From assembly GCA_035291665.1 (NCBI GenBank), contig DATDRP010000002.1, forward strand, positions 1,085-65,084: DNA of 64,000 nt, read 5' to 3'. The notes below the pieces were generated by a model. That model made no database searches, had not been told where the DNA came from, and was given only the letters and a program-made list of their open reading frames with translations. Position 1 is the first letter of the stretch; each line of letters begins with the position of its first letter. Of the stretch, positions 16,964 to 26,836 are shown piece by piece. Source of the DNA: Patescibacteria group bacterium. Lineage in GTDB: Bacteria > Patescibacteriota > Microgenomatia > UBA8517. A program made the translations under genes and the position numbers.

Positions 16964-17629
16964 TCAATCAATTAATAAATATTTAATATTTCCAAGTTTC
17001 CGTTGATAATCAACTTGATTAGCTACAAATTTTCGATACATTAATCTTGAGCCTATAATTTCAAGAATTAGTTTTGAATCTACAAGGGTCTCTTTTTTAC
17101 CGAGATAAATCGGAAATGAGGTTAAGACGCTGTCTTTTAATTCTTTTGTATCCATTAAGTATGATGTCACCGGATTCAAATGGATGTATCTGGATACATG
17201 AAGCAGGGTTTCATCACTGCTGATATGCTTAGCTTTAAACGGATTTTGAAATAGTGAACCATGTCTTTTGTTTTTAACATTAAAATATTTTGCATAGCTA
17301 TTTTGGAAATTCGATAAAAAATTGCGGATTCCATTTTCAGCTGTTTGTCTGAGAAGTAAATGAAAATGATCAGGCATAAAACAGTACGCGTAAATTTCTA
17401 CAATCTTTTTATCAAATGAATTATTTTTAAGATAGTCCAGTTTCTGAAAATCTTTTAATTTATTGAAAAAGGAGTACCTTATAGTTTGCTCATAATGGTA
17501 AAAGGAAATTAAATTTAGAGCTCTTTCTATGTCTCTTTTCTTCGAGAAAGTCCATTCATTGGCAGTTGTCCTATTGTAAACATGGTAGGTTTCACCATTT
17601 GCAAACACAAGGTTGCGTTTTCTCGGCAT
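16964..17629 (-). mobile_element. REP-associated tyrosine transposase (RAYT, IS200-like Y1 HuH transposase)
   Basis: YHVYNRT N-terminus, HuH motif MPDHFHLLL, catalytic Tyr motif SRYIHLNPV. Flanked on both sides by inverted REP-A copies. Confidence 0.75.
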
Positions 17630-17646
17630 AGAAGATTTATAATTTA

Positions 17647-17767
17647 TTTTACAGATTTGGGGGTAGGGTGTAAATACAATTTCACCCTTGGGGTGTAAGG
17701 ATTTATTATTTTACAGATTTGGGGGTAGGGTGTAAATACAATTTCACCCTTGGGGTGTAAGGATTTA
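17647..17767 (+). repeat. tandem duplication (2 x about 61 bp) of REP-A in inverse orientation, 5' of the RAYT gene
   Basis: ttttacagatttgggggtagggtgtaaatacaatttcacccttggggtgtaaggattta appears twice head-to-tail. Its reverse complement matches the 16905 copy. Confidence 0.75.
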
Positions 17768-18322
17768 CTCCGATAAAATTGCAGTTACAACGAAGCGTTT
17801 TGTATCAAAAAATCCGCTGCAAGTATAAAGAGTTATTCTTCTATCTTCGGTCGGATTAAGAATCGAGGATTGGTAAGGTCCCACCTCCTGAGTAAAATGG
17901 ACGACAAATTTTCTGGTTGCTCCGCTTGCAAAATCTACATAAATCTCGTCATCCGGCTTAACTTTTGTCAGACTTTTTAATAAATTTGGGAAATTATGCC
18001 CGTAGATGATGCTGTTTCCTATTTCACCGGGGACGGGTGACGTTTCCAAATAGGAAACACCCTTTTTTGTCGATTCCCATCGGTTATTCACAATCTTGGA
18101 AGGAATTATCGGTAAGCTGGAGTCAATTGAAGGAATCCTTAATATTGTAGGATTAGAAAAGTCTGCCGGAACATTCCCGCTTATCAAACTGCTATTTTGA
18201 ACTTCCGGTGCCTGATTAAATTGAAGTCTTACAGAACTATTCCTCTCCCATATCAAATATCCAAAAGCACCAAATCCGATTAAACCCAAAAGAATTAGAA
18301 GGTTGGCAAATGCTTTACGCAT
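17765..18322 (-). CDS. sortase family transpeptidase
   Basis: N-terminal TM anchor, His motif IYGHN, catalytic Cys motif TLYTC, conserved Arg near the C-terminus. Confidence 0.8.
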   Translation of the reverse strand: MRKAFANLLILLGLIGFGAFGYLIWERNSSVRLQFNQAPEVQNSSLISGNVPADFSNPTILRIPSIDSSLPIIPSKIVNNRWESTKKGVSYLETSPVPGEIGNSIIYGHNFPNLLKSLTKVKPDDEIYVDFASGATRKFVVHFTQEVGPYQSSILNPTEDRRITLYTCSGFFDTKRFVVTAILSE

Positions 18323-18354
18323 AAATAAATATAAAGAAAATTACTAACTTAAGC

Positions 18355-19188
18355 TTAGTTGGCTTTTTTACGAAGCGCAACTCCTGCACTTGTCAGAAGT
18401 AGTGAAGCTGCAAAGACTGAGTATAAAATAGCTGAATTTCCGGTTGTTGCCAATCCGAGGACCGATCCGCCTCCGATTACTCTGTTTGAAGAAGGTTCAG
18501 ATGGCATACAATTATTGACTGCGTAGACAACAAAGTAATAGGTTGCATTAGGATCAAGAGCCTCAACTGTATAGCTGGTTACGTTTCCGGTATTAGGTAC
18601 ACCGTAAGGGTATTCTCCCAATTTTGTTCCGTAAGCCAGTGTGTAATGAGTGGCAAATTCCTCTTTTGTCCAGGTTATGGTTGCTTTACTTCCTGACTTT
18701 ACGACTGAAAGGATTTCAGGTGCATCCGGCCTTCTTGAATCACAAACCGGTGCTCCGGGAGGATTGTGCGGAGGATTGTCAGGTGGATTTGATTTGCAGC
18801 TATAATTGGCATTTTGGGCCAAATAAGGTGAGGATTCCAATCCCCAATCTGCTCCTGACGGAACGTAGTACCAACCAAGTTTTGTTAAAATATCAATTGC
18901 TGTTTGTTCAAGAGAACTAATTTTCCACCAATTTGTTTGAATTCCGCTTCCGTCTTCAGCACAAAAACACTGAATAAGATTCTCTCCTGTGTAATATACT
19001 GCATCCGACCCGCTGACACCTGTTTCACGGCCGACAATATAATGAGTTCCTGAGTCATAACTTACTTTTTTTGTCCCTTGGGGATTTGAACATGAAGGAA
19101 AGCTTGGTGCCTCAGTTGCTGAAACTGCTGCGGCCAAGACAAATACTAAGATCACCTGTGCTACGATAAATGCGACTCTTTTCAACAT
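18355..19188 (-). CDS. secreted fibronectin type III domain protein with LAxTG-like (LATTG) C-terminal sorting signal
   Basis: Signal peptide, Pro-rich linker, FN3 domain (ATITWTKEEF...YYFVVYAVN). C-terminus LGLATTGNS, hydrophobic stretch, then RKKAN. Confidence 0.6.
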   Translation of the reverse strand: MLKRVAFIVAQVILVFVLAAAVSATEAPSFPSCSNPQGTKKVSYDSGTHYIVGRETGVSGSDAVYYTGENLIQCFCAEDGSGIQTNWWKISSLEQTAIDILTKLGWYYVPSGADWGLESSPYLAQNANYSCKSNPPDNPPHNPPGAPVCDSRRPDAPEILSVVKSGSKATITWTKEEFATHYTLAYGTKLGEYPYGVPNTGNVTSYTVEALDPNATYYFVVYAVNNCMPSEPSSNRVIGGGSVLGLATTGNSAILYSVFAASLLLTSAGVALRKKAN

Positions 19189-19394
19189 AAATTTTGTTTT
19201 TCTGGGCAGAAAACAGGGTACTAACTAACTATGGCGGAATTATATAACATTATAGGAAGTTATGTCAAGTATTTTATATATCTTGATATATCGACTATCA
19301 ACCAGTCTGGGATCAACATACAATGAGTGAGATACAAATAAATTTTTAATATAGGCTTATACTATTATATATACTTATCTCAAACACCATAATT

Positions 19395-19440
19395 GCACAC
19401 TTGCACACCCTTAGGGTGAAACATGCGTACACCCTTTACT
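19395..19440 (+). repeat. REP-A copy
   Basis: gcacacttgcacacccttagggtgaaacatgcgtacaccctttact. Confidence 0.7.
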
Positions 19441-19485
19441 CTCCGCATATAAACTTGATCATAACCTGAACGATTGAGGGTTTTC

Positions 19486-19528
19486 GGGGTAAAGGGTGTA
19501 AATATAATTTCACCCTTGGGGTGTAAAT
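19486..19528 (+). repeat. REP-A copy, inverse orientation variant
   Basis: ggggtaaagggtgtaaatataatttcacccttggggtgtaaatg. Pairs with the 19395 copy in a BIME-like arrangement. Confidence 0.65.
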
Positions 19529-19535
19529 GCATTGC

Positions 19536-20699
19536 TCACAACTCACAACTACTGACACTCTCTCCGTTTACGCACTGATCCGTATCTGAATTTCCATGAA
19601 GCGTATCCGTTTCGGTTCCTCCATCCAGAAAATCATTTCCTGAGTTTCCTCTCATCGTGTCGTTACCCGCTTCACCATAAACCTTATCGTTATCTGACCC
19701 CCCCCGAAGCTCATCATTCCCGGCTCCCCCGTAAATTTCATCATTTCCTGACTCACCGTCAATATTATCCTGTCCCTCGCCACCTTCAGCGTAGTCGTCA
19801 TCTGATCCGAGATCAATATTATCGTTTCCCAAACCTCCGTACGCTTTATCCTTCCCTGAACCTGTTTCTATTTTATCGTTCCCTTCCCCACCATAAACCG
19901 TGTCATTGCCATACCCGCCGTCTATCTTGTCATTTCCCGGTCCTCCCAAAATTACTTCATCGCCGGATTCACCGACCAGGTGGTCGTTTCCCTCACCGCC
20001 AACAATACAATCACTATCACTACTGGCCCAAACTTTATCATTTCCCCCATATGCCAGGATTAACTCCGGTTGAACCGACCCGTAAATACGCTCACTTTCG
20101 TCAGTTCCTTCAACAATCCTGCCAAAAGTCATATGCCGACACTCGGGTGGAATTTTATTGTCAGAAATTTCAGTCGACCAGGACAAATCAAATTTCAACC
20201 TGGCATTTTGATATTCATTACCCGCTTCGGGAGGAAATTTGACCGTCATACAAAAAGCTCTTTCCTGACCGGGATCAAAATTGCCCAAATTTACAGCTTC
20301 AAGCTCATCAAAAAAATTACGCATTGTCTTGAAGCCGTTTGATCCTCCATAAAAATCACCAAATCCGGTTTCATCAACAATCACTTCCAGTATTCCAGAA
20401 AAATCCTTCTCTTCGGATCCGAATATCGCTCGCATCAATACATCAAATGACTCAGTTTCATTTACATTTTTTATCTTGAAGCACCTCTTTTCAACGTCCC
20501 CCGGCTTCATGTCATCAAGTGTAAAAATGGGATCAGGCACTCCGCCACCTTCGTAAGTTACTTCAATAAGATCAACCTCCTCCACCTCGCTTGCTTGAGC
20601 CTGTTTTATAACAGTCATCACTCCGTAGGCCACAAATGGAAGCAACAATAATAACAATATTCTCTTATTCATTTTTATTCTATTTATTAGTTTCAGCAT
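19536..20699 (-). CDS. secreted RTX-type calcium-binding repeat protein
   Basis: Signal peptide. C-terminal half is about 12 tandem GGxGNDxI-type nonapeptide repeats (GGEGNDHLVGESGDEV..GGPGNDKIDGGYGNDTVYGG...). Confidence 0.7.
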   Translation of the reverse strand: MLKLINRIKMNKRILLLLLLPFVAYGVMTVIKQAQASEVEEVDLIEVTYEGGGVPDPIFTLDDMKPGDVEKRCFKIKNVNETESFDVLMRAIFGSEEKDFSGILEVIVDETGFGDFYGGSNGFKTMRNFFDELEAVNLGNFDPGQERAFCMTVKFPPEAGNEYQNARLKFDLSWSTEISDNKIPPECRHMTFGRIVEGTDESERIYGSVQPELILAYGGNDKVWASSDSDCIVGGEGNDHLVGESGDEVILGGPGNDKIDGGYGNDTVYGGEGNDKIETGSGKDKAYGGLGNDNIDLGSDDDYAEGGEGQDNIDGESGNDEIYGGAGNDELRGGSDNDKVYGEAGNDTMRGNSGNDFLDGGTETDTLHGNSDTDQCVNGESVSSCEL

Positions 20700-20835
20700 A
20701 TTCTTACTATATACACCGCTTCGACCTTGCTCAGTGTCTTTACTTACAGGGGTTCCCCTTTAAAGGTCGATACTCAAATTTCTAAGTACTCTAATTAACC
20801 TAATTTCTAATTAAAATCCAATACCCAATTACTAA

Positions 20836-22452
20836 TTAAGGTACACAAACATTATTGTTTGATATTCCTTTCGAAACACCAGTGCATGGAAGAGTCCATA
20901 TTGTATTTCTGTCCGTATTTCTTCCAGTAGACTTATCGTCCGTCAAAGCACCAAAAGTGTGTTGATCGATAATTTGACCAGATAGATTAATCAATTTCAA
21001 TGTTTCCCCGCCTGTATTATTTAACCACCCTTCTGATCTTTCATATACTGAATAAGTTAAGGAGTTAGCTGTACCTAGGGATGAGACATTTTCAATGTTG
21101 TTTGCAGCATCCACTAAAGTCCAGTTGGTAAGATCGATATTTTCTAAACTTGGATTATATAATTCCACCCACTCAGTTGTAAAAGTTGTATCGGGATTAG
21201 AAAGTAGTTCATTCAAAATTATATTCGATCCATATCCGGGAGTCGGTCTTTCGCGGACAATAAAGTCGCTCGGTTCAAAATCATCCCCCGTTACGGAATC
21301 AATGCCAATTGGCACTCTTTCGATAGATTGATTTTGGGATGGTATTGCATCCCCGTTAACGTTCCATCGGGTAACATCAATTACAGTTGTGCCATTCGTA
21401 TCAATTAACTTAAGCTGCCCTACGTCTATATTAAGAGTTCCTCCCAAATTTCCAGTTTGAGTTCCGTTATCGTCATAACAGCTATTCCAGATCGCAGAAC
21501 TATGGGCAAGAAGCAGAAATTCACCGGGTTGAATCGTCAAATTATTCGCTGTAACTAAATCGACGGTATTAGTACCATCTGTAATCTTGTAATTTTTAGG
21601 ATTAACGGCAAAATTATAACCGTTATAAAGCTCGATCCATTGGGCTTCAGTGTTACCCTGGGAACAACTCGAGTCAGGTAAAACTTCGTTGATTACCAAA
21701 GTTTGTGCAATTCGAGTCGGTGGCGACCACTCTCCAGCCCGGAATAGATTGCCAAGAGATCCTTCGGTGTCGGAGAAGAATGATGCCGAAAAAGAAAGCA
21801 TCACAATAGCTGCTCCGAAAACAGGAATGAAAGTAAACATTTTTTTGACTCCGCGTTCTGAATCTACGGCGTGTGCTTGACCTTTCCGATTTTTAATCTT
21901 TTTGACAATCTCCGATATCAAACTTCTCAGCTCTTCATATATAAGAATAGTAGCCGGGACTATAACTAATAGTATAAAACCCCAGGGTTTTTTGGCGTAA
22001 TTCGCCAAATACCCCACATAAGGCACAGCCAGCTGTACTTTGCCGATGATCTGGTCTGGCCTCACACTTGCGGAGTCAAGATCTTCATTGGCATCCCCTT
22101 TTGTAATAAAAACAGGATCTTTACCGATACCGTCCGGGAATTTTTTATAGGCAATTCTATGCGTAACAACGTTCTTCCCACGCCCGCTTACATCAAAAGT
22201 GACAACATCTCCGCTGACATAATTTTCCGATTTGACCACAAAGACAACACTGCCAACTTTTACTCCGGGCTCCATTGAACCGGATTCAACAATATACATT
22301 CGGGGGAGTATTGATTGCATCGATTGAAGCTGGTTTCCTTTTTGAAGATTGTCAATAAATTCTGCTCCATTCTGACCCAGCAGAAAAAACAAAGCTACCC
22401 AGATGGGGAGTACCAGTATTCCAAGTACTATCAGTAATATTTTCTTTAACAT
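20836..22452 (-). CDS. SipW-type signal peptidase I fused in frame to a SipW-cognate signal peptide and two lamin-tail domains (LTD)
   Basis: N-terminus ESGSMEP (catalytic Ser box) and KGDANEDLD box, TM segment, then SFSASFFSDTEGSLGNLFRAGEW (SipW-cognate motif), then INEVLPDSS...WIELYN and LNELLSNPD...WVELYN LTD motifs. Internal ATG at 21838-21840 with GGAG upstream. Confidence 0.7.
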   Translation of the reverse strand: MLKKILLIVLGILVLPIWVALFFLLGQNGAEFIDNLQKGNQLQSMQSILPRMYIVESGSMEPGVKVGSVVFVVKSENYVSGDVVTFDVSGRGKNVVTHRIAYKKFPDGIGKDPVFITKGDANEDLDSASVRPDQIIGKVQLAVPYVGYLANYAKKPWGFILLVIVPATILIYEELRSLISEIVKKIKNRKGQAHAVDSERGVKKMFTFIPVFGAAIVMLSFSASFFSDTEGSLGNLFRAGEWSPPTRIAQTLVINEVLPDSSCSQGNTEAQWIELYNGYNFAVNPKNYKITDGTNTVDLVTANNLTIQPGEFLLLAHSSAIWNSCYDDNGTQTGNLGGTLNIDVGQLKLIDTNGTTVIDVTRWNVNGDAIPSQNQSIERVPIGIDSVTGDDFEPSDFIVRERPTPGYGSNIILNELLSNPDTTFTTEWVELYNPSLENIDLTNWTLVDAANNIENVSSLGTANSLTYSVYERSEGWLNNTGGETLKLINLSGQIIDQHTFGALTDDKSTGRNTDRNTIWTLPCTGVSKGISNNNVCVP

Positions 22453-22539
22453 GCTACAAATGGCTACGAATTATTTAAAAAATCGGTTTCAAATAGTTCA
22501 TTAAACTGCTACAGATAGTTTACTGCCGACAACTTTATT

Positions 22540-22758
22540 TCATTTCCTCGTAAACATTCTTACTCTTGTTATTACTTTTCCGTCTTCATTGGGCCTCTCT
22601 GACAGCTGGACTTCAAATCCTAATCCGTCTTCGTTTTTCTCAACCAAATTCGAGGCTAATTTTGCCTCCTCATCACTGCCTCCTGCCGTCTTCACCCCGA
22701 TGAACGCCAGAATTTGAGAAGGCGAGTGGGTGTTTATATCAAGCATTTCGTCAGTCAT
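22540..22758 (-). CDS. hypothetical small protein (72 aa)
   Basis: One of three small overlapping co-directional ORFs between the TasA-like gene and the SipW fusion gene. Confidence 0.35.
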   Translation of the reverse strand: MTDEMLDINTHSPSQILAFIGVKTAGGSDEEAKLASNLVEKNEDGLGFEVQLSERPNEDGKVITRVRMFTRK

Positions 22759-22994
22759 GGTTCATTATTTTCGTGAAATACACTGAAACTGATCTTTTCA
22801 TTCGGTTTGTAAGTTTCGTTAACTACAATTCCAAAAGTTGTATCATTTTCGGGATCCAGTTCGTAAAGAAGTGCTGCCAGCGTTGCAGTTTTCTTATTTC
22901 CGCACAAAGACTCAACAAATGTATAAGCTAAACTTTGCGATTCATTCCAGCTTTTCCCTTCAGAAAAATCAGGATTTATTTTTTCGGCACACAT
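22755..22994 (-). CDS. hypothetical small protein (79 aa)
   Basis: 4-nt overlap with the downstream ORF, suggesting translational coupling. Confidence 0.35.
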   Translation of the reverse strand: MCAEKINPDFSEGKSWNESQSLAYTFVESLCGNKKTATLAALLYELDPENDTTFGIVVNETYKPNEKISFSVFHENNEP

Positions 22995-23191
22995 AATTTT
23001 CTTCTTGACGGGTTTACTTTACCGTCATTGACATTAACCGGCATAGATAGAATCCTTTTATATTCACTTTCAAGAGCCCGATAGGTTTCATATGTAATTG
23101 TTCCGGTAAGATACTGATCCGTTAGATCAATTAAACTCAAATCCTCTAATCGGACCTCTACCCCGTTATTCAAATGTTGCTCGATTATCAT
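22976..23191 (-). CDS. hypothetical small protein (71 aa)
   Basis: Overlaps the next ORF by 19 nt, co-directional. Confidence 0.35.
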   Translation of the reverse strand: MIIEQHLNNGVEVRLEDLSLIDLTDQYLTGTITYETYRALESEYKRILSMPVNVNDGKVNPSRRKLCVPKK

Positions 23192-23227
23192 TCGCGTTCA
23201 TACAATTTACTAATCAACCAATTAGGC

Positions 23228-23302
23228 AGACCACGTACTTCGACACTTTAAAGTACCTGGTCTGCCCTTCACCCTGAGTAATCTCATTGGGTGAAGAAAA
23301 CA
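23228..23302 (-). repeat. two consecutive stable hairpins 3' of the TasA-like gene
   Basis: ggcagaccacgtacttcgacactttaaagtacctggtctgcc (9+6 bp stem) and cttcaccctgagtaatctcattgggtgaag (8-bp stem with the CACCC/GGGTG core). Confidence 0.45.
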
Positions 23303-23308
23303 GACTTG

Positions 23309-24667
23309 CTAAGTACCCGGCAGTTCTGTACCACAAAACGTTTGGACACCATCCAAATCATATGCATCTGCCGTAGCTTCGAAAAGACTCTTATCGCTTT
23401 CGTCGGTAATTCTCAGGTATGCTGCCCAGGGTAGCCCTGATGTACTCAAGTCCAAAAATGAATCCCGAGCGGTACTAGCAGAAACTACGAAAAAGTTGAC
23501 TCCGTTCTGACTGGCTTCAACTTTGATCTTTTCATCGGGATAAACTCCTCCCGTTACTTCAAAGACCCTGAAGTCAAAACCCGCCATATCAACTATCGGA
23601 TTTGCAAAAGATAACACAATATTTCCTCCGCCTATATTTTCAGCTCCAAATCCCAAGCTGAAAAAAGTATCTGCAATAACTGGTGAATCTGAAGGAGCAC
23701 CCGTACTTTCCGGAGCACCCAGTGCATCATTCGGATCATCTCTATCTGCCAAAACTGCCGTCCCGTCTTTACGTAATCCTTGAGCAGACGACACAACACC
23801 TGTTGCGTATCCGGGGATACAAGCCACAGGAGTCGGTGTAACCGTTATTTCAGGAGGATTGCAAAGGAACCGGTCGTTATGTCTTGCTTGTTCAGCAAAA
23901 AACGTTAAATCAACCATAAAGTTATCTGTTTGAGATTGATTATCCAGTCCCGATCCATCACAAGTGAAACCACTACCTCTGTCATCGGGGGTACCATCTC
24001 CTTGTTGCAGCGGTGTTTCACCGATATCTCCATAACAGAAATATTTTGCTATATAGAATTTTTCAGGACCAATTGGCCCAAATGACCCACCGGAATCCCC
24101 TTTCAACCATTTTTCCTGTCCACCGAAAACGCTGAGAGCGTTGCCTCGTGTCAATACTTCTTCTTCTGTTTCAAATACATTATCTCCGTCATCTATCCAA
24201 AACACGAAGTTCAAATTTTGACCCAGCTCCCCAAGGTTTTCACCGGGATCTTGACATAATCCATTCTCATCAAGCATTTCGGGTTCGGTACAAGAAAGAT
24301 CGTTGTTTGCAGTAACTTTGAAGTCTCCGCAAAGCCATGCTGGATTGGCGACAGAAAACGAAATTGTGTCTTCTTCCCAATCGCCAGGCTTTAGGTCATG
24401 CAGATCAAAAAAAAGTTCTCCATCCAAACTTTTAGACCGCCATGTGCAGGAACATTCGTTCCCATCTTTATTTTCTCCATCCCAAAAACCTTCAATACAG
24501 GCATTCCCATTGTAATAACAAGTGTTATCAATCTCCAAATCAATTGCACCTGCTTGAAACAGGTTTCCGGATGAAGTTTCTTCATCAGAGAAGAAAGCTC
24601 CGGTCACCGCAAATGCGGTTAATCCAATTAATCCAAGTGTTATCAAACTAAATAATATTTTTTTCAA
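23309..24667 (-). CDS. secreted TasA/camelysin-like protein with SipW-cognate signal peptide, TTG start
   Basis: AFAVTGAFFSDEETSSGNLFQAGAIDL. Paralog of the 25152-26306 protein (shared NFVFWIDDGDNV, GSGFTCDG, QTDN..DL.FFA.Q.R.N..FLC). Start codon TTG at 24665-24667 preceded by AGGGAGGAGGTGA. Confidence 0.65.
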   Translation of the reverse strand: MKKILFSLITLGLIGLTAFAVTGAFFSDEETSSGNLFQAGAIDLEIDNTCYYNGNACIEGFWDGENKDGNECSCTWRSKSLDGELFFDLHDLKPGDWEEDTISFSVANPAWLCGDFKVTANNDLSCTEPEMLDENGLCQDPGENLGELGQNLNFVFWIDDGDNVFETEEEVLTRGNALSVFGGQEKWLKGDSGGSFGPIGPEKFYIAKYFCYGDIGETPLQQGDGTPDDRGSGFTCDGSGLDNQSQTDNFMVDLTFFAEQARHNDRFLCNPPEITVTPTPVACIPGYATGVVSSAQGLRKDGTAVLADRDDPNDALGAPESTGAPSDSPVIADTFFSLGFGAENIGGGNIVLSFANPIVDMAGFDFRVFEVTGGVYPDEKIKVEASQNGVNFFVVSASTARDSFLDLSTSGLPWAAYLRITDESDKSLFEATADAYDLDGVQTFCGTELPGT

Positions 24668-24684
24668 TTTTTATTTCACCTCCT

Positions 24685-24724
24685 CCCTGTGAAGTAGCGG
24701 TCTGCGCACTTCACGGGATCCCGT
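24685..24724. repeat. family C GC-rich hairpin (CCCTGTGAAGTAG...CACTTCACGGGATCCCGT) abutting the SD of the TasA-like gene
   Basis: 10-bp stem. Related copies at 24997, 25055, 26385, 26514 and 57503. Confidence 0.5.
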
Positions 24725-24856
24725 CCTGTTAGATAATTTCATATCTCATGGGACTGGGACCTCCATTCTAACTTCAGTTTACGGATGAAGCTCCGGATCT
24801 TTGAAAAATAAAAACTTAAAATTCAAAGCTCAAAACCATAATTTCAAACTTACTGA

Positions 24857-24914
24857 CACACCCTACGGGAGAAATCCTTATTAGATATTTCAAAGGTATT
24901 TCACCCCAAGGGTG
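24857..24914 (+). repeat. REP-B element (about 57 bp)
   Basis: cacaccctacgggagaaatccttattagatatttcaaaggtatttcaccccaagggtg. Confidence 0.7.
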
Positions 24915-24927
24915 TTTAAATTTTTAA

Positions 24928-24970
24928 TTTTATTCCGGGTTTCGGAGGGGCAAGCCTCCCGAAACCTTTG
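24928..24970. repeat. 11-bp-stem hairpin (ggtttcggagg...cctcccgaaacc)
   Basis: Inverted repeat read directly from the sequence. Sits in the 480-bp hairpin-dense spacer between the two TasA-like genes. Confidence 0.4.
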
Positions 24971-24996
24971 TCAAACTCTTTTTAAGGATTTTGCCA

Positions 24997-25032
24997 CCCC
25001 TGTGAGATAGTTTTTCACCACCTCACGGGGTG
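24997..25032. repeat. family C hairpin copy
   Basis: cccctgtgagatagtttttcaccacctcacggggtg. Confidence 0.45.
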
Positions 25033-25054
25033 ACTGAATTTTTCAAATTTTCTC

Positions 25055-25092
25055 CGACGAAGTAACGATTAACGTACTTCACGGAGTCCCGT
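25055..25092. repeat. family C hairpin copy
   Basis: cgacgaagtaacgattaacgtacttcacggagtcccgt. Confidence 0.45.
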
Positions 25093-25151
25093 AAGATATT
25101 AATTTATCTTACTGGGAGAAATTAGATTCCTTAACTAACTTCCTTGCGTGA

Positions 25152-26306
25152 CTAATTCGGTGCACAATCCAAATGAAAAGTGATACTGTTTCCCAAACTA
25201 TCTACCAAATCATGCACAACGTATCCTGTTTCACCAGCTGGGAATGTGTAATGTGGATAAACCGGATAGTTAAATCCATCCACTGCTAGAGCTCCTGGTT
25301 TAGCCATTCCATTACCTCCAACCAGATTAAGGCTTGAGTCGATTCCCCCACCGACAACATGTGTTCCGGCAGGACACGACCAACCAGCCCAACCTCCATC
25401 GCCAAATCCATCTTGAGTCCTACTTATTCTTGTAGGTTCAACAGGCCAAGTTGGTTTCCAATCAGAACAAAGGAAATTCGGATTGTTCCTGTGTTGGACC
25501 GCGTAGAATTGCAAATCACCGACAACTATGTCTGTTTGAGCTGCATTGTCTACTGGTTCGCCATCACAAGTGAATCCTGTTCCTCTTGCCAATGGACCGT
25601 TAGTTGCACCTTCAAGTTTTCCTTGTCCATCTTGAGCAACCGGATTTCTGGCTAAAGTTCCAAAACACCAGTATTTCCCGATGTGTACGGTTTCTCCACC
25701 TGGAAGAGGATTACCAGTACTCTGATCAGCCAATGCAATTTGACCCGAATCACCCATTCCACTCAGTGGTCCACTTAAGAACACACTTTCTGGACCGTTT
25801 TCCCCAATTTCGTAAACATTATCTCCATCATCCCACCAGAATACGAAATTCACTTCTTCGTCCAGTTCGCCATCTTCAAGTAATGGGTCTGCCCCGACTG
25901 TTAGATCGTCTCCAGTTTCAGGTTCAGTGTAAGTGTTGTCATTGTCATCTGTCAGCCTTGCAGCTGCACATACCCATGCATCATTATTATTTACATGAAC
26001 CGAAATTGTGTCTTCACCGTAATCTCCCGGTTTAAGATCAACAAAGTCAAAGAATTTTTGAACTGTTAAGTCCGCCAATTCCCATGATGTATTTTTACTT
26101 GCAACAAAAGCACCAATTGGTCTTTCGTATCCAGGAATGTTCCAATCGATTGCATAGCTTTCGTTATCGATCAAAAGGTCAATTGCACCTGCAACAAATG
26201 TATTTCCAGTTGATGTCTCTTCATCAGAGAAGAATGCACCGGTTGCGAGAACCGCACCTATTGCAACTACTCCGATAGAAAACGCACTTAATAAAATTTT
26301 TTTCAT
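25152..26306 (-). CDS. secreted TasA/camelysin-like protein with SipW-cognate signal peptide (paralog)
   Basis: MKKILLSAFSIGVVAIGAVLATGAFFSDEETSTGNTFVAGAIDL. Start taken at ATG 26304-26306 with SD AAAGGAGGTGA; the ORF track extends it to 26354. Confidence 0.65.
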   Translation of the reverse strand: MKKILLSAFSIGVVAIGAVLATGAFFSDEETSTGNTFVAGAIDLLIDNESYAIDWNIPGYERPIGAFVASKNTSWELADLTVQKFFDFVDLKPGDYGEDTISVHVNNNDAWVCAAARLTDDNDNTYTEPETGDDLTVGADPLLEDGELDEEVNFVFWWDDGDNVYEIGENGPESVFLSGPLSGMGDSGQIALADQSTGNPLPGGETVHIGKYWCFGTLARNPVAQDGQGKLEGATNGPLARGTGFTCDGEPVDNAAQTDIVVGDLQFYAVQHRNNPNFLCSDWKPTWPVEPTRISRTQDGFGDGGWAGWSCPAGTHVVGGGIDSSLNLVGGNGMAKPGALAVDGFNYPVYPHYTFPAGETGYVVHDLVDSLGNSITFHLDCAPN

Positions 26307-26317
26307 ATATTTCACCT

Positions 26318-26338
26318 CCTTTCTTCTTCGAAGAAAGG
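26318..26338 (-). promoter_or_regulatory. 5'UTR hairpin whose 3' arm overlaps the Shine-Dalgarno sequence of the TasA-like gene
   Basis: cctttcttcttcgaagaaagg gives a 9-bp perfect stem. On the mRNA its 3' arm continues directly into AGGAGGTGA. Confidence 0.45.
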
Positions 26339-26384
26339 AACCCGTTGGATGCATTTATGCTATCCAACTGGGTACCTCCTCCCC

Positions 26385-26575: not shown

Positions 26576-26836
26576 CTAACTGTGACCACCAAAATAGTTT
26601 TTCAATCTACCTTTGATATACCGTTTTCCCCAAGCACTTTTTAGATAAACTTCCCTTTTATATGCATCTTTTAAATTTAATGATGCTTCGTAATAAACAA
26701 GTTTAAAAGGTCTCCTAAATTTCGTCGCTTTCACTAACCCTTTGTTGTGTCGTTCTAACCGTTTCTTTAAATCGTTTGATGTTCCTGTATATAACTTTTT
26801 ATCCTTCAAACTCTGTAATACATATACAAAATACAT
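26576..26836 (-). CDS. GIY-YIG nuclease domain protein (small, Slx1/YhbQ-like)
   Basis: MYFVYVLQSLKDKKLYTGTSNDLKKRLERHN is the GIY...YIG motif with the following Arg/His. Confidence 0.7.
   Translation of the reverse strand: MYFVYVLQSLKDKKLYTGTSNDLKKRLERHNKGLVKATKFRRPFKLVYYEASLNLKDAYKREVYLKSAWGKRYIKGRLKNYFGGHS

Follow-up and report, generated by a model that had tools for sequence, protein, structure and literature searches.

Type I signal peptidases usually find their substrates through membrane diffusion and, to our knowledge, no other enzyme of this type is hard-wired to its cognate pre-protein. In the eukaryotic signal peptidase complex, SEC11 works in a hetero-tetramer, and we know of no SEC11 protein fused to a substrate. 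Moreover, SipA/LepA from Streptococcus pyogenes (PDB code: 4N31), a signal-peptidase homolog that lacks the catalytic residues and has a chaperone role, is required for pilus polymerization. For the Gn/Gc precursors of bunyaviruses, an internal signal peptide spans the membrane and a signal peptidase cut separates the two products (PMC7926653). In the tapA-sipW-tasA system of Bacillus subtilis, the stop codon of tapA and the start codon of sipW overlap, and TapA acts as a strand donor through its N terminus, with TapA residues 44-57 being enough on their own for a biofilm to form (PMC10151520). Mature TasA begins at residue 28, with F29 at the P2' position (PMC10151520, PMC9674648, PMC10269814).

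The locus described here was found in the window, that is, the whole 64-kb stretch of DNA that was analyzed, and a comparison with the B. subtilis system reveals several common elements: an ER/archaeal-type signal peptidase (SPase) with a C-terminal transmembrane helix (TM), special signals with an aromatic P2' residue and a conserved post-cleavage segment, fiber subunits that are probable TasA homologs, an accessory protein with a donor-like N terminus and a complete Ig-like domain, and translational coupling of the accessory and peptidase genes (PMC10151520). However, the host is a CPR bacterium, the peptidase and the accessory protein share one polypeptide, with the cargo behind the peptidase, and the accessory domain is a lamin-tail domain (LTD) instead of the V-set Ig fold of TapA. 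SEC11A and SEC11C are the best structure and sequence matches of the peptidase, with the Ser, His, and Asp residues aligned, but the CPR enzyme differs in carrying a second TM of its own and a substrate tethered to it. SipA/LepA, the third fold match, has the same SPase I fold in a surface-fiber locus, whereas the CPR protein retains all the catalytic residues. With the viral glycoprotein polyproteins, the shared trait is an internal signal peptide cut between products (here predicted), the difference being that the viral peptidase is supplied by the host and the one reported here precedes the substrate within a single chain. Neither another fusion of a signal peptidase with a pre-protein nor a published description of a peptidase-substrate fusion was found in the literature searched.

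Domain content of the fused protein

A single open frame on the minus strand, starting with ATG, encodes in this order the peptidase, a second membrane helix, a basic loop, an internal SipW-type signal peptide, the segment FFSDTEGSLGNLF, and two LTDs (Table 1). A sequence-only reading of this DNA, in which the strand was missing, had described the frame as a SipW-type peptidase joined to its own cognate cargo, and all the strings on which it relied are found in the translation: ESGSMEP, KGDANEDLD, the hydrophobic segment aa 157-175, INEVLPDS...WIELYN, and LNELLSNPD...WVELYN, as well as SFFSDTEGSLGNLFRAGEW, whose first residue is aa 224.

Table 1. Features of the fused gene and its neighbors, with positions in the window
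Feature	Position	Strand	Residues or sequence	Basis and remarks
Whole fused ORF (signal peptidase, internal signal peptide, two LTDs)	20836..22452	minus	538 aa	Coordinates include the stop
TM1, N-terminal membrane anchor of the peptidase	22384..22440	minus	aa 5-23	Hydropathy 3.05; AF2 helix 2-27
ER/archaeal-type SPase I catalytic domain	21988..22320	minus	aa 45-155	TIGR02228
Ser59 of the ESGSMEP box	22276-22278	minus	S59	SEC11C/A alignment
His98	22159-22161	minus	H98	SEC11C/A alignment
Asp120 (KGDANEDLD box)	22093-22095	minus	D120	SEC11C/A alignment
Asp126 (KGDANEDLD box)	22075-22077	minus	D126	SEC11C/A alignment
TM2, SipW-type C-terminal helix, predicted to return the chain to the cytoplasm	21928..21984	minus	aa 157-175, WGFILLVIVPATILIYEEL	AF2 helix 156-190
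Basic loop ending in Met205, predicted cytoplasmic	21838..21927	minus	aa 176-205	Net charge of aa 176-206, +6; pLDDT <50 at aa 192-200
Internal signal-peptide h- and c-region (TM3)	21781..21837	minus	aa 206-224, FTFIPVFGAAIVMLSFSAS	AF2 helix 203-227
Post-cleavage SipW-type motif, putative TasA-type donor strand	21730..21780	minus	aa 225-241, FFSDTEGSLGNLFRAGE	
LTD 1	21238..21699	minus	about aa 252-405	Pfam LTD stretch; lamin Ig-fold matches
LTD 2	20893..21228	minus	about aa 409-520	Pfam LTD best stretch 409-501; AF2
Downstream secreted protein, conserved gene after the fusion	19536..20699	minus		RTX repeats (Pfam HemolysinCabind); synteny
Upstream putative TasA/camelysin-family protein 2	23309..24667	minus	N-terminal SipW-type signal …AFAVTGA/FFSDEETSSGN	Strong SD; TIGR04088 20.5 bits (cut-off 19)
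Upstream putative TasA/camelysin-family protein 1	25152..26306	minus	Same N-terminal signal	Strong SD; TIGR04088 20.0 bits

The N-terminal part had been taken for an ER/archaeal-type SPase, and the domain models and the alignments bear this out. TIGR02228 (sigpep_I_arch) matches aa 45-175 with 92.3 bits (cut-off 51.85), and the protein has the Ser nucleophile of the SGSMEP box, a His (not Lys) general base, and the Asp residues of the GDxNxxxD box that are typical of the S26B/TIGR02228 class. Its top PDB matches, both by sequence and by fold, are SEC11C and SEC11A, and the catalytic Ser and His are both in place in the alignment. Across the family, S59, H98, D120, and D126 are kept in 111-114 of about 115 sequences containing the domain, and the Ser, His, and Asp residues hardly vary, if at all, among 85-120 homologs. 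Also, the catalytic domain is modeled with a pLDDT of 93-97 (AF2). Based on the TIGR02228 score, the retention of the four residues, and the SEC11C/A matches, an active peptidase is predicted. As in SipW, the enzyme has a second, C-terminal TM (aa 157-175) and lies in a TasA-family locus, with two such genes upstream; however, the SipW equivalog model from Bacillus (NF046067) gives 87.1 bits, below its cut-off of 190. By these sequence features, the peptidase is SipW-like in type and context and not an equivalog of Bacillus SipW.

For the C-terminal half, Pfam LTD (PF00932) scores 80.8 bits (cut-off 34.3) over two stretches, and the AF2 model shows an Ig-like beta-sandwich, the LTD 1 region being all-beta with a pLDDT of 94-98. 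The tail that follows LTD 2 carries a Cys pair conserved in homologs. An LPCTG string in this C-terminal region was considered as a sorting signal for the neighboring sortase and rejected for its lack of conservation and of a following TM; homologs have NPCSMV, EPCAGV, or KNCTTP at this position, and the Cys pair stays. The sortase substrate at the locus is an fn3 protein with LATTG, a TM, and a basic tail. An Rfam scan of the 64-kb window gave no match.

Internal signal peptide and predicted membrane topology

The segment behind the peptidase had been read as a SipW-type signal, and it does match the N-terminal signals of the neighboring TasA-like genes before running into the two LTDs. It has an h-region, small residues at -3 (S222) and -1 (S224), and the motif [FY]FxDxExSxxN; a cut is predicted between S224 and F225 (bases 21781 and 21780). 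The conserved positions after the cut are F at +2, D at +4, E at +6, S at +8, N at +11, F/L at +13, and A at +15, a pattern that agrees with F29 at P2' in TasA. Unlike an ordinary SipW-dependent signal, this one begins at about aa 206 of 538, whereas the unfused orthologs carry it at the N terminus. Exactly three copies of the motif occur in the six-frame translation of the window, at the N termini of the two upstream genes and internally here. Moreover, an HMM built exclusively from 66 stand-alone N-terminal signals taken from related loci matches aa 207-242 with 28.8 bits, against at most 3.9 for shuffled sequences. TIGR04088 gives no match to the internal segment, whereas both upstream neighbors pass its cut-off (Table 1). 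In the alignment of the junction, S/T/A is found at -3 and S/A/G at -1 (118 of 120 sequences in each case), -2 is variable, F occupies +2 in 102, and D occupies +4 in 109. The stand-alone signals share this pattern.

The fused chain has three hydrophobic helices, the first directly preceded by MLKK (+2). The loop between the second and the third is positively charged in 77 of 77 homologs (median +8, with +6 in the window protein), and 72 of 77 have a net negative charge in the segment C-terminal to the cleavage site. By the positive-inside rule, sequence and comparison show a predicted topology with the N terminus in the cytoplasm and the catalytic domain outside; TM2 would bring the chain back inside, leaving the basic loop cytoplasmic, and the former signal peptide would cross outward as TM3. 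In sequence terms, the loop is the counterpart of two elements, the basic tail of the stand-alone peptidases and what was once the n-region of the cargo signal. This three-helix arrangement would place the conserved -3/-1 site at the outer face of the membrane, adjoining the already folded catalytic domain.

Topology and conservation of the cleavage site together suggest that the peptidase probably cleaves itself. The cut between S224 and F225 would be made in cis or between copies, the spent signal peptide would stay on the membrane-held enzyme as its third helix, and the two-LTD protein would be freed with the new N terminus FFSDTEGSLGNLF. For this cut, the predicted semi-tryptic peptide is FFSDTEGSLGNLFR. 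A spent signal peptide that stays tethered might compete with other substrates of the peptidase.

Conservation, origin and rival explanations

An error of sequencing or assembly that erased a stop or shifted the frame between two genes could have produced such a frame, all the more as two genes are present at this place in related lineages. Nonetheless, we give this explanation practically no weight and reject it, because at least 10 contigs, built by independent assemblers from independent JGI and Logan samples, carry the identical 538-aa protein, and because more than 100 diverged homologs share the fused junction. The source samples include JGI 3300025327 and 3300002503 as well as SRR3990171 and SRR3989307. 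The check for a missed stop and the search for the same fusion in related genomes, both suggested by the sequence-only reading, thus speak for a genuine fusion. The homologs (30-58% identity) keep the peptidase, TM2, the basic loop, the h-region, and the motif, and the junction is kept in 90 of 122 further representatives of 50% clusters. The named carriers are Woesebacteria, Chisholmbacteria, Amesbacteria, and the Microgenomates group; among lineage-named genomes, the fusion is found in the Microgenomates branch of CPR/Patescibacteria.

On the other hand, eleven loci (L038, L039, L041, L043, L046, L047, L050, L052, L054, L057, and L059), those named being from Berkelbacteria, have the TasA-like protein, the peptidase, and the LTD pre-protein as separate genes. 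The parts are orthologous and stand in the identical order at the identical locus; the difference is that there are two genes, most with overlapping stop and start codons, and that the signal peptide is N-terminal. Their stand-alone peptidases have 182-219 aa (the one in L050 is cut by the contig end), and in eight of the eleven the peptidase stop and the following gene share 1, 4, or 14 nt, with the ATGA pattern seen in six. The halves of the window protein are colinear with the two genes of L052 (E values of 6e-22 and 8e-11). That the cargo is cognate, as had been claimed, agrees with these sister lineages, where a separate LTD gene with the same kind of SipW-type N-terminal signal lies right after the peptidase. 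Because other CPR lineages have the same pieces as adjacent genes, the separate pair is, by this sequence comparison, the ancestral state, and the fusion is derived from the loss of a stop codon that joined the peptidase to the next pre-protein gene.

The same ancestry bears on an internal start. It had been proposed that the ATG at 21838-21840 (Met205), with an upstream GGAG, could express the cargo separately; both elements exist, the GGAG being 8 nt upstream, but such a start is not a feature of the family. If most of the cargo were translated from Met205, with the long product being minor, one frame would give two proteins. This would fit with the scarcity of SD motifs in the genome (3 of 45 genes, both upstream pilin (TasA-like) genes among them) and with the position expected for the ancestral start codon. 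However, Met is absent from the six commonest residues of the alignment column, the frame stays open across the junction family-wide, and a signal beginning at Met205 would leave out the Lys residues, which are encoded farther upstream, and with them any basic n-region. Moreover, 23 of 208 internal in-frame ATGs in the window (11%) have an SD-like motif by chance, which makes the GGAG unremarkable. We therefore regard translation mostly from Met205 as very improbable; the ATG may be what is left of an ancestral start.

The remaining rivals accept one long product and differ on the fate of the site. In a permanent tether, the signal-like helix would remain uncleaved and act as a third membrane anchor, keeping the LTDs attached to the peptidase (in short-tail relatives, keeping just the donor-strand motif attached); as a corollary, the peptidase would itself anchor or nucleate a TasA-like fiber at the membrane. 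Cargo length in the fused homologs ranges from 20 to more than 600 aa, and the motif is constant, as if the motif and not the release of a domain were under selection. Also, Pro210 is invariant among close homologs, whereas the two stand-alone signals of the window have no Pro in the h-region, which hints at a specialized TM3, and the AF2 helix continues unbroken through the predicted site, with a modest pLDDT of 64-80. Nonetheless, an uncleaved segment would not be expected to have -3 and -1 residues as strictly small as those of the cleaved stand-alone signals, with -2 free, and the TasA donor strand starts at the mature N terminus (PMC9674648); we consider the tether unlikely. Cleavage by another enzyme, either a housekeeping LepB-type peptidase or only copies acting in trans, would make the fusion neutral and without functional coupling. 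A single small mutation would have been enough to create it, given the ATGA overlap of the ancestral genes, and its topology would be harmless because the peptidase C terminus and the signal n-region are both predicted to be cytoplasmic; moreover, frameshifted copies occur (L007 and L025). Against this, the fusion persists down to about 30% identity in more than 100 clusters, LepB processes TasA-type sites poorly owing to their aromatic P2' (PMC10269814), and the six-frame translation of the 64-kb window has just one Ser-box and no second. This explanation appears quite improbable. The best joint explanation, which we consider likely, is a genuine and conserved fusion that processes itself and carries a TapA-like donor cargo for TasA-family subunits.

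Putative fiber locus and significance

The relationship of the two upstream proteins to TasA becomes visible through their relatives. In PF12389 the two proteins score 19.9 and 16.2 bits, below the cut-off of 22.5, whereas 25 of 27 relatives match this family (best E value of 1.6e-13). A phmmer search of a single upstream neighbor against the PDB gave nothing; the profile of the 27 relatives was required to reach TasA, matching the structures 8AUR and 5OF1 over the whole jelly-roll with an E value of 1e-7. By analogy with B. subtilis, both subunits are presumably matured by the same peptidase, protein 2 being a presumed further substrate. Protein 1 probably starts with MKKILL at 26306. The protein encoded downstream of the fusion has a region similar to the C-terminal strands of the TasA-like jelly-roll (hhalign against the TasA-like profile, 90% probability), and the SipW-type motif is absent from it.

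The post-cleavage segment aligns, with a one-residue gap, with the N-terminal donor strand of TasA (PMC9674648). Because the upstream genes are probable TasA homologs, the released N terminus is probably a TapA-like donor strand, and the peptide FFSDTEGSLGNLFRAGEW would fit the TasA-family subunits encoded upstream, by analogy with TapA and TasA of B. subtilis. The cargo has no TasA acceptor domain and so would, on the same analogy, initiate or cap purely as a donor, with one copy made per peptidase and at the site of the peptidase. The resemblance to TapA would be functional only, consisting of a donor-like N terminus and a complete Ig-like domain, and the TapA/YqxM family is absent among the Pfam and NCBIfam matches of the fused protein. 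A further parallel with TapA is seen in complete fused genes with just 20-45 aa after the motif (L034, L029, L026, and L027), although some short-tail metagenomic homologs may be truncated genes. More tentatively, and as a possibility we hold with less than even confidence, each peptidase could carry and self-release one donor-strand initiator where the TasA-like subunits mature, a built-in fiber primer with one seed per enzyme. One polypeptide would then couple export, maturation, and nucleation, and the minimal form of such a primer would be seen in the relatives whose cargo is the motif of about 20 aa and a short Pro/Thr tail.

If self-cleavage is true, the protein would show that a membrane protease polyprotein occurs naturally, and in compact form, in a cellular organism. 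Moreover, we know of no solved complex of a type I signal peptidase with a signal peptide, and in that case the S59A form would be a tethered 1:1 enzyme-signal-peptide complex, useful to structural biologists. Fused and unfused states in sister lineages document the fusion of translationally coupled genes where membrane topology permits it. Finally, the surface appendages of CPR bacteria are thought to be important for their episymbiotic lifestyle and are poorly understood; self-cleavage of this protein would extend the TasA/TapA donor-strand fiber paradigm to these bacteria.

The fused reading frame and its conservation

A single ATG-initiated frame of 538 residues in the ORF listing of the window encodes a signal peptidase followed by an internal SipW-type signal and two lamin-tail domains (LTDs), and its translation contains every string quoted in the sequence-only reading. 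Residues 45-175 match NCBIfam TIGR02228 (archaeal/ER-type signal peptidase I; 92.3 bits, cut-off 51.85), both LTDs are matched by Pfam (80.8 bits vs 34.3), and human SEC11C and SEC11A rank first in the PDB in both sequence and fold comparisons, with Ser, His and Asp boxes that align with those of the fusion. The residues S59, H98, D120 and D126 are kept in 111-114 of about 115 domain-containing sequences; in an alignment of 85 sequences, the last three never vary and S59 has a conservation of at least 90%. Judged by sequence, the enzyme belongs to the ER/archaeal-type SPase I family and is SipW-like by its residues, second transmembrane segment (TM2) and locus; against NF046067, the equivalog model of Bacillus SipW, it reaches 87 bits, short of the cut-off of 190. 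In the six frames of the window there is a single signal-peptidase Ser-box, and the SipW-type motif occurs three times in all: twice at the N-termini of the upstream TasA-like genes and once inside the fusion.

A spurious read-through caused by an assembly error had been considered, and the fusion proves genuine: independent JGI and Logan samples provide at least 10 contigs that encode the identical protein, each time called as one gene with unchanged neighbours, and the junction is kept in homologues. The fusion, its domains and its catalytic residues are conserved at the sequence level. A search over 5.8 billion proteins gave 169 matches, and among the best 120 of these 169, nearly all have kept the peptidase as well as the internal motif, with identities of 30-58%. 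Also, residues 1-250 searched against 1.84 billion 50%-identity representatives gave 201 matches at E<=1e-30, with TM2 and then the motif in 90 of the 122 representatives new to this search.

Features of the window and of related loci (L0xx) found by scanning one genome per species
Sequence	Coordinates	Strand	Feature
Window	17765-26354	minus	whole locus
Window	16964-17629 and 26576-26836		locus flanks: IS200/IS605-type Y1 transposase (PF01797) and small GIY-YIG protein
Window	26307-26330 and 24668-24690		strong SD (GGAGGTG) before the TasA-like genes
Window	25152-26306 and 23309-24667	minus	TasA-like genes
Window	22540-23191	minus	three small ORFs (71, 79, 72 aa), overlapping end to end, between TasA-like genes and fusion
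Window	20836-22452	minus	fusion
Window	21838-21840		internal ATG (Met205)
Window	19536-20699		counterpart of the fourth gene of unfused lineages
L047	1992-2954		fourth gene
L044	7869-9311		peptidase fused to jelly-roll protein
L007	7809-8976		split fused gene (Daviesbacteria MAG)
L025	7956-9156		split fused gene (Chisholmbacteria MAG)
L034	7977-8642		short-cargo fusion
L029	7896-8594		short-cargo fusion
L026	7899-8633		short-cargo fusion
L027	390-1193		short-cargo fusion

Predicted cleavage site and topology

In the family alignment, the conserved TM2 (GFILLVIVPATIIIYEEL) is followed by a variable basic linker, an h-region with conserved Pro and Gly, and the motif [SA][FY]FxDxExSxxNx[FL]xA. 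Read as a cleavage site, position -3 is S, T or A in 118 of 120 sequences and position -1 is S, A or G in the same proportion (118/120), with -2 free, and downstream +2 is F in 102/120 and +4 is D in 109/120. An identical pattern is present in 73 stand-alone N-terminal signals of neighbouring genes. Mature B. subtilis TasA begins at residue 28, placing F29 at P2' (PMC10151520, PMC9674648, PMC10269814), and because the site pattern of the family fits this start, the cut is predicted, to within about one residue, between S224 and F225. Moreover, a lineage HMM trained only on 66 stand-alone signals matches residues 207-242 of the fusion with 28.8 bits (shuffled sequences, at most 3.9 bits) and gives an internal match in 216 of 242 family proteins. 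The curated TIGR04088 passes on both TasA-like neighbours (20.5 and 20.0 bits vs 19) and gives no detection on the internal copy. By these comparisons, the internal segment is homologous to genuine signals and its cleavage-site pattern is conserved.

The fusion has three hydrophobic segments (residues 5-23, 157-175 and 208-226). Its N-terminus has a charge of +2 and its TM2-TM3 loop of +6, this loop being positive in 77 of the 77 homologues measured (median +8), and in 72 of the 77 the 25 residues past the cleavage site carry a net negative charge. The positive-inside rule puts the catalytic domain outside the cell together with the cleavage site and the LTDs, and since they would lie on the same side, the geometry permits cutting of the own chain. 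The AF2 model (mean pLDDT 89) has a confident catalytic domain and two confident beta domains, with helices at 156-190 and 203-227 and disorder at 192-200 and 234-242. The main rival explanation is that the internal signal stays uncleaved and acts as a tether, against which the strictly small residues at -3 and -1 speak. In the reading favoured here, the bond between S224 and F225 would be cut by the catalytic domain of the protein itself, in cis or in trans, and the LTD cargo would then be released.

Unfused loci and the origin of the fusion

The scan recovered 60 loci, and all lineage-named ones are Patescibacteria. About 30 contain the third hydrophobic segment and the motif, the named genomes including Woese-, Chisholm- and Amesbacteria and the Microgenomates group. 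Eleven loci (L038, L039, L041, L043, L046, L047, L050, L052, L054, L057 and L059; the named ones are Berkelbacteria) have a stand-alone peptidase gene of 182-219 residues, ending in a short hydrophilic basic tail (the L050 gene is cut by the end of its contig), and then a separate LTD-protein gene with an N-terminal SipW-type signal. In 8 of the 11, the gene downstream begins before the end of the peptidase stop codon, with an overlap of 1, 4 or 14 nt, and six show an ATGA pattern. In other unfused loci (e.g. Beckwith-, Moran- and Parcubacteria), the peptidase has about 190-233 residues and no obvious LTD gene adjoins it. The N-terminal half of the fusion shares 39% identity with the L052 peptidase (E 6e-22), and its C-terminal half, beginning with the h-region, is colinear with the LTD pre-protein of L052 from its signal peptide (E 8e-11). 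These separate overlapping genes and the colinear alignment indicate that the unfused arrangement is ancestral and that the fusion arose later, when the stop codon separating two translationally coupled genes was lost. The join is topologically seamless, the C-terminus of the peptidase and a signal n-region both being cytoplasmic.

Met205, flagged in the sequence-only reading as a possible separate start of the cargo, sits with its GGAG at the expected place of the ancestral start and ribosome-binding site. In its alignment column, however, Met is outside the six commonest residues; an SD-like motif precedes 23 of the 208 internal in-frame ATGs in the window, and a signal peptide begun at Met205 would be without a basic n-region.

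In one Patescibacteria genome (L044), the peptidase is fused instead to another secreted protein, the jelly-roll one usually encoded next after the LTD gene; the internal signal at the join looks ordinary (…LIIAPSTYA/ITKD) and is without the SipW-type motif. Given this different cargo, peptidase-substrate fusion seems to have arisen more than once. The fused genes of L007 and L025 are split into two overlapping frames, which may reflect a frameshift error, a pseudogene or recoding. Also, the CPR-type locus is found in many TPA MAG records titled 'uncultured Gammaproteobacteria', 'Pseudomonadales' or 'Bdellovibrionales' (L002, L003, L008, L009, L013 and others), titles that are probably wrong taxonomic labels in public records.

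The TasA-type locus and the putative role of the cargo

The whole locus resembles a surface-fibre operon, transcribed in the order two TasA-like genes, three small ORFs, fusion, jelly-roll and RTX protein, fn3 protein and sortase, and this gene order is also found in a Woesebacteria locus (L004). The fn3 protein ends in LATTG, a transmembrane segment and a basic tail. The three small ORFs are called as genes in 4/4 independent assemblies and show no signal peptide and no recorded Pfam match. SD motifs are rare in the genome (3 of 45 gene starts), and the strong ones before both TasA-like genes suggest that the fibre subunits are translated at an unusually high level. In unfused lineages (L046-L057), the LTD gene is followed by a gene of 313-349 residues. 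Its product combines a signal and a TasA-like 'GPL.I.Y.G.GP.F' core with a C-terminal transmembrane segment plus basic tail, and may serve the fibre as an acceptor-only membrane anchor; the window counterpart has RTX repeats instead and a C-terminal C..GE..SSCEL.

A profile built from the upstream genes plus 25 relatives matches B. subtilis TasA (fibre 8AUR, monomer 5OF1) over the width of the jelly roll (E 1e-7), and 25 of its 27 members match Pfam PF12389, which identifies the upstream neighbours as predicted TasA homologues and the locus as TasA-type. In B. subtilis, the donor strand linking TasA subunits is formed by the first mature residues, 28-38 (PMC9674648), and TapA, which has a complete Ig fold and is no shaft subunit, starts the fibre by donating a similar N-terminal strand, its residues 44-57 being sufficient for biofilm formation (PMC10151520). 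In the cargo, a conserved N-terminal segment leads directly into two Ig-like LTDs, without a TasA acceptor domain; thus, by analogy, it would be a donor-only protein in the TapA sense, TapA homology being absent, and it may act as a donor-strand initiator. Family members differ in the modules of the cargo, which may be a single LTD, a pair of LTDs, an LTD together with an unknown domain, or unknown domains without an LTD; the motif is its constant part, as the initiator reading predicts. In four complete genes (L034, L029, L026 and L027) the cargo extends only 20-45 residues beyond the predicted cleavage site, namely the motif and a Pro/Thr-rich tail, and the next gene starts normally. Of the 90 new representatives with the fusion, about 40 have tails below 90 residues, and truncated genes may account for some of these.

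The CPR system would share its mode of working with tapA-sipW-tasA of B. subtilis, where the tapA stop and the sipW start overlap (PMC10151520), whereas in CPR one polypeptide comprises both the peptidase and the accessory substrate, and an LTD serves as the accessory domain. Earlier work noted TasA homologues in Patescibacteria (10.1101/2022.04.22.489182), databases name these fusion proteins plainly 'signal peptidase I', and no description of the fusion was found in the literature searched. The component parts are all known already; what we infer is the function of the fusion and its selective advantage, if any. A signal peptidase fused to its own substrate is unexpected to a specialist, and a form with the catalytic serine mutated (S59A) would give a tethered enzyme-signal-peptide complex for structural work.
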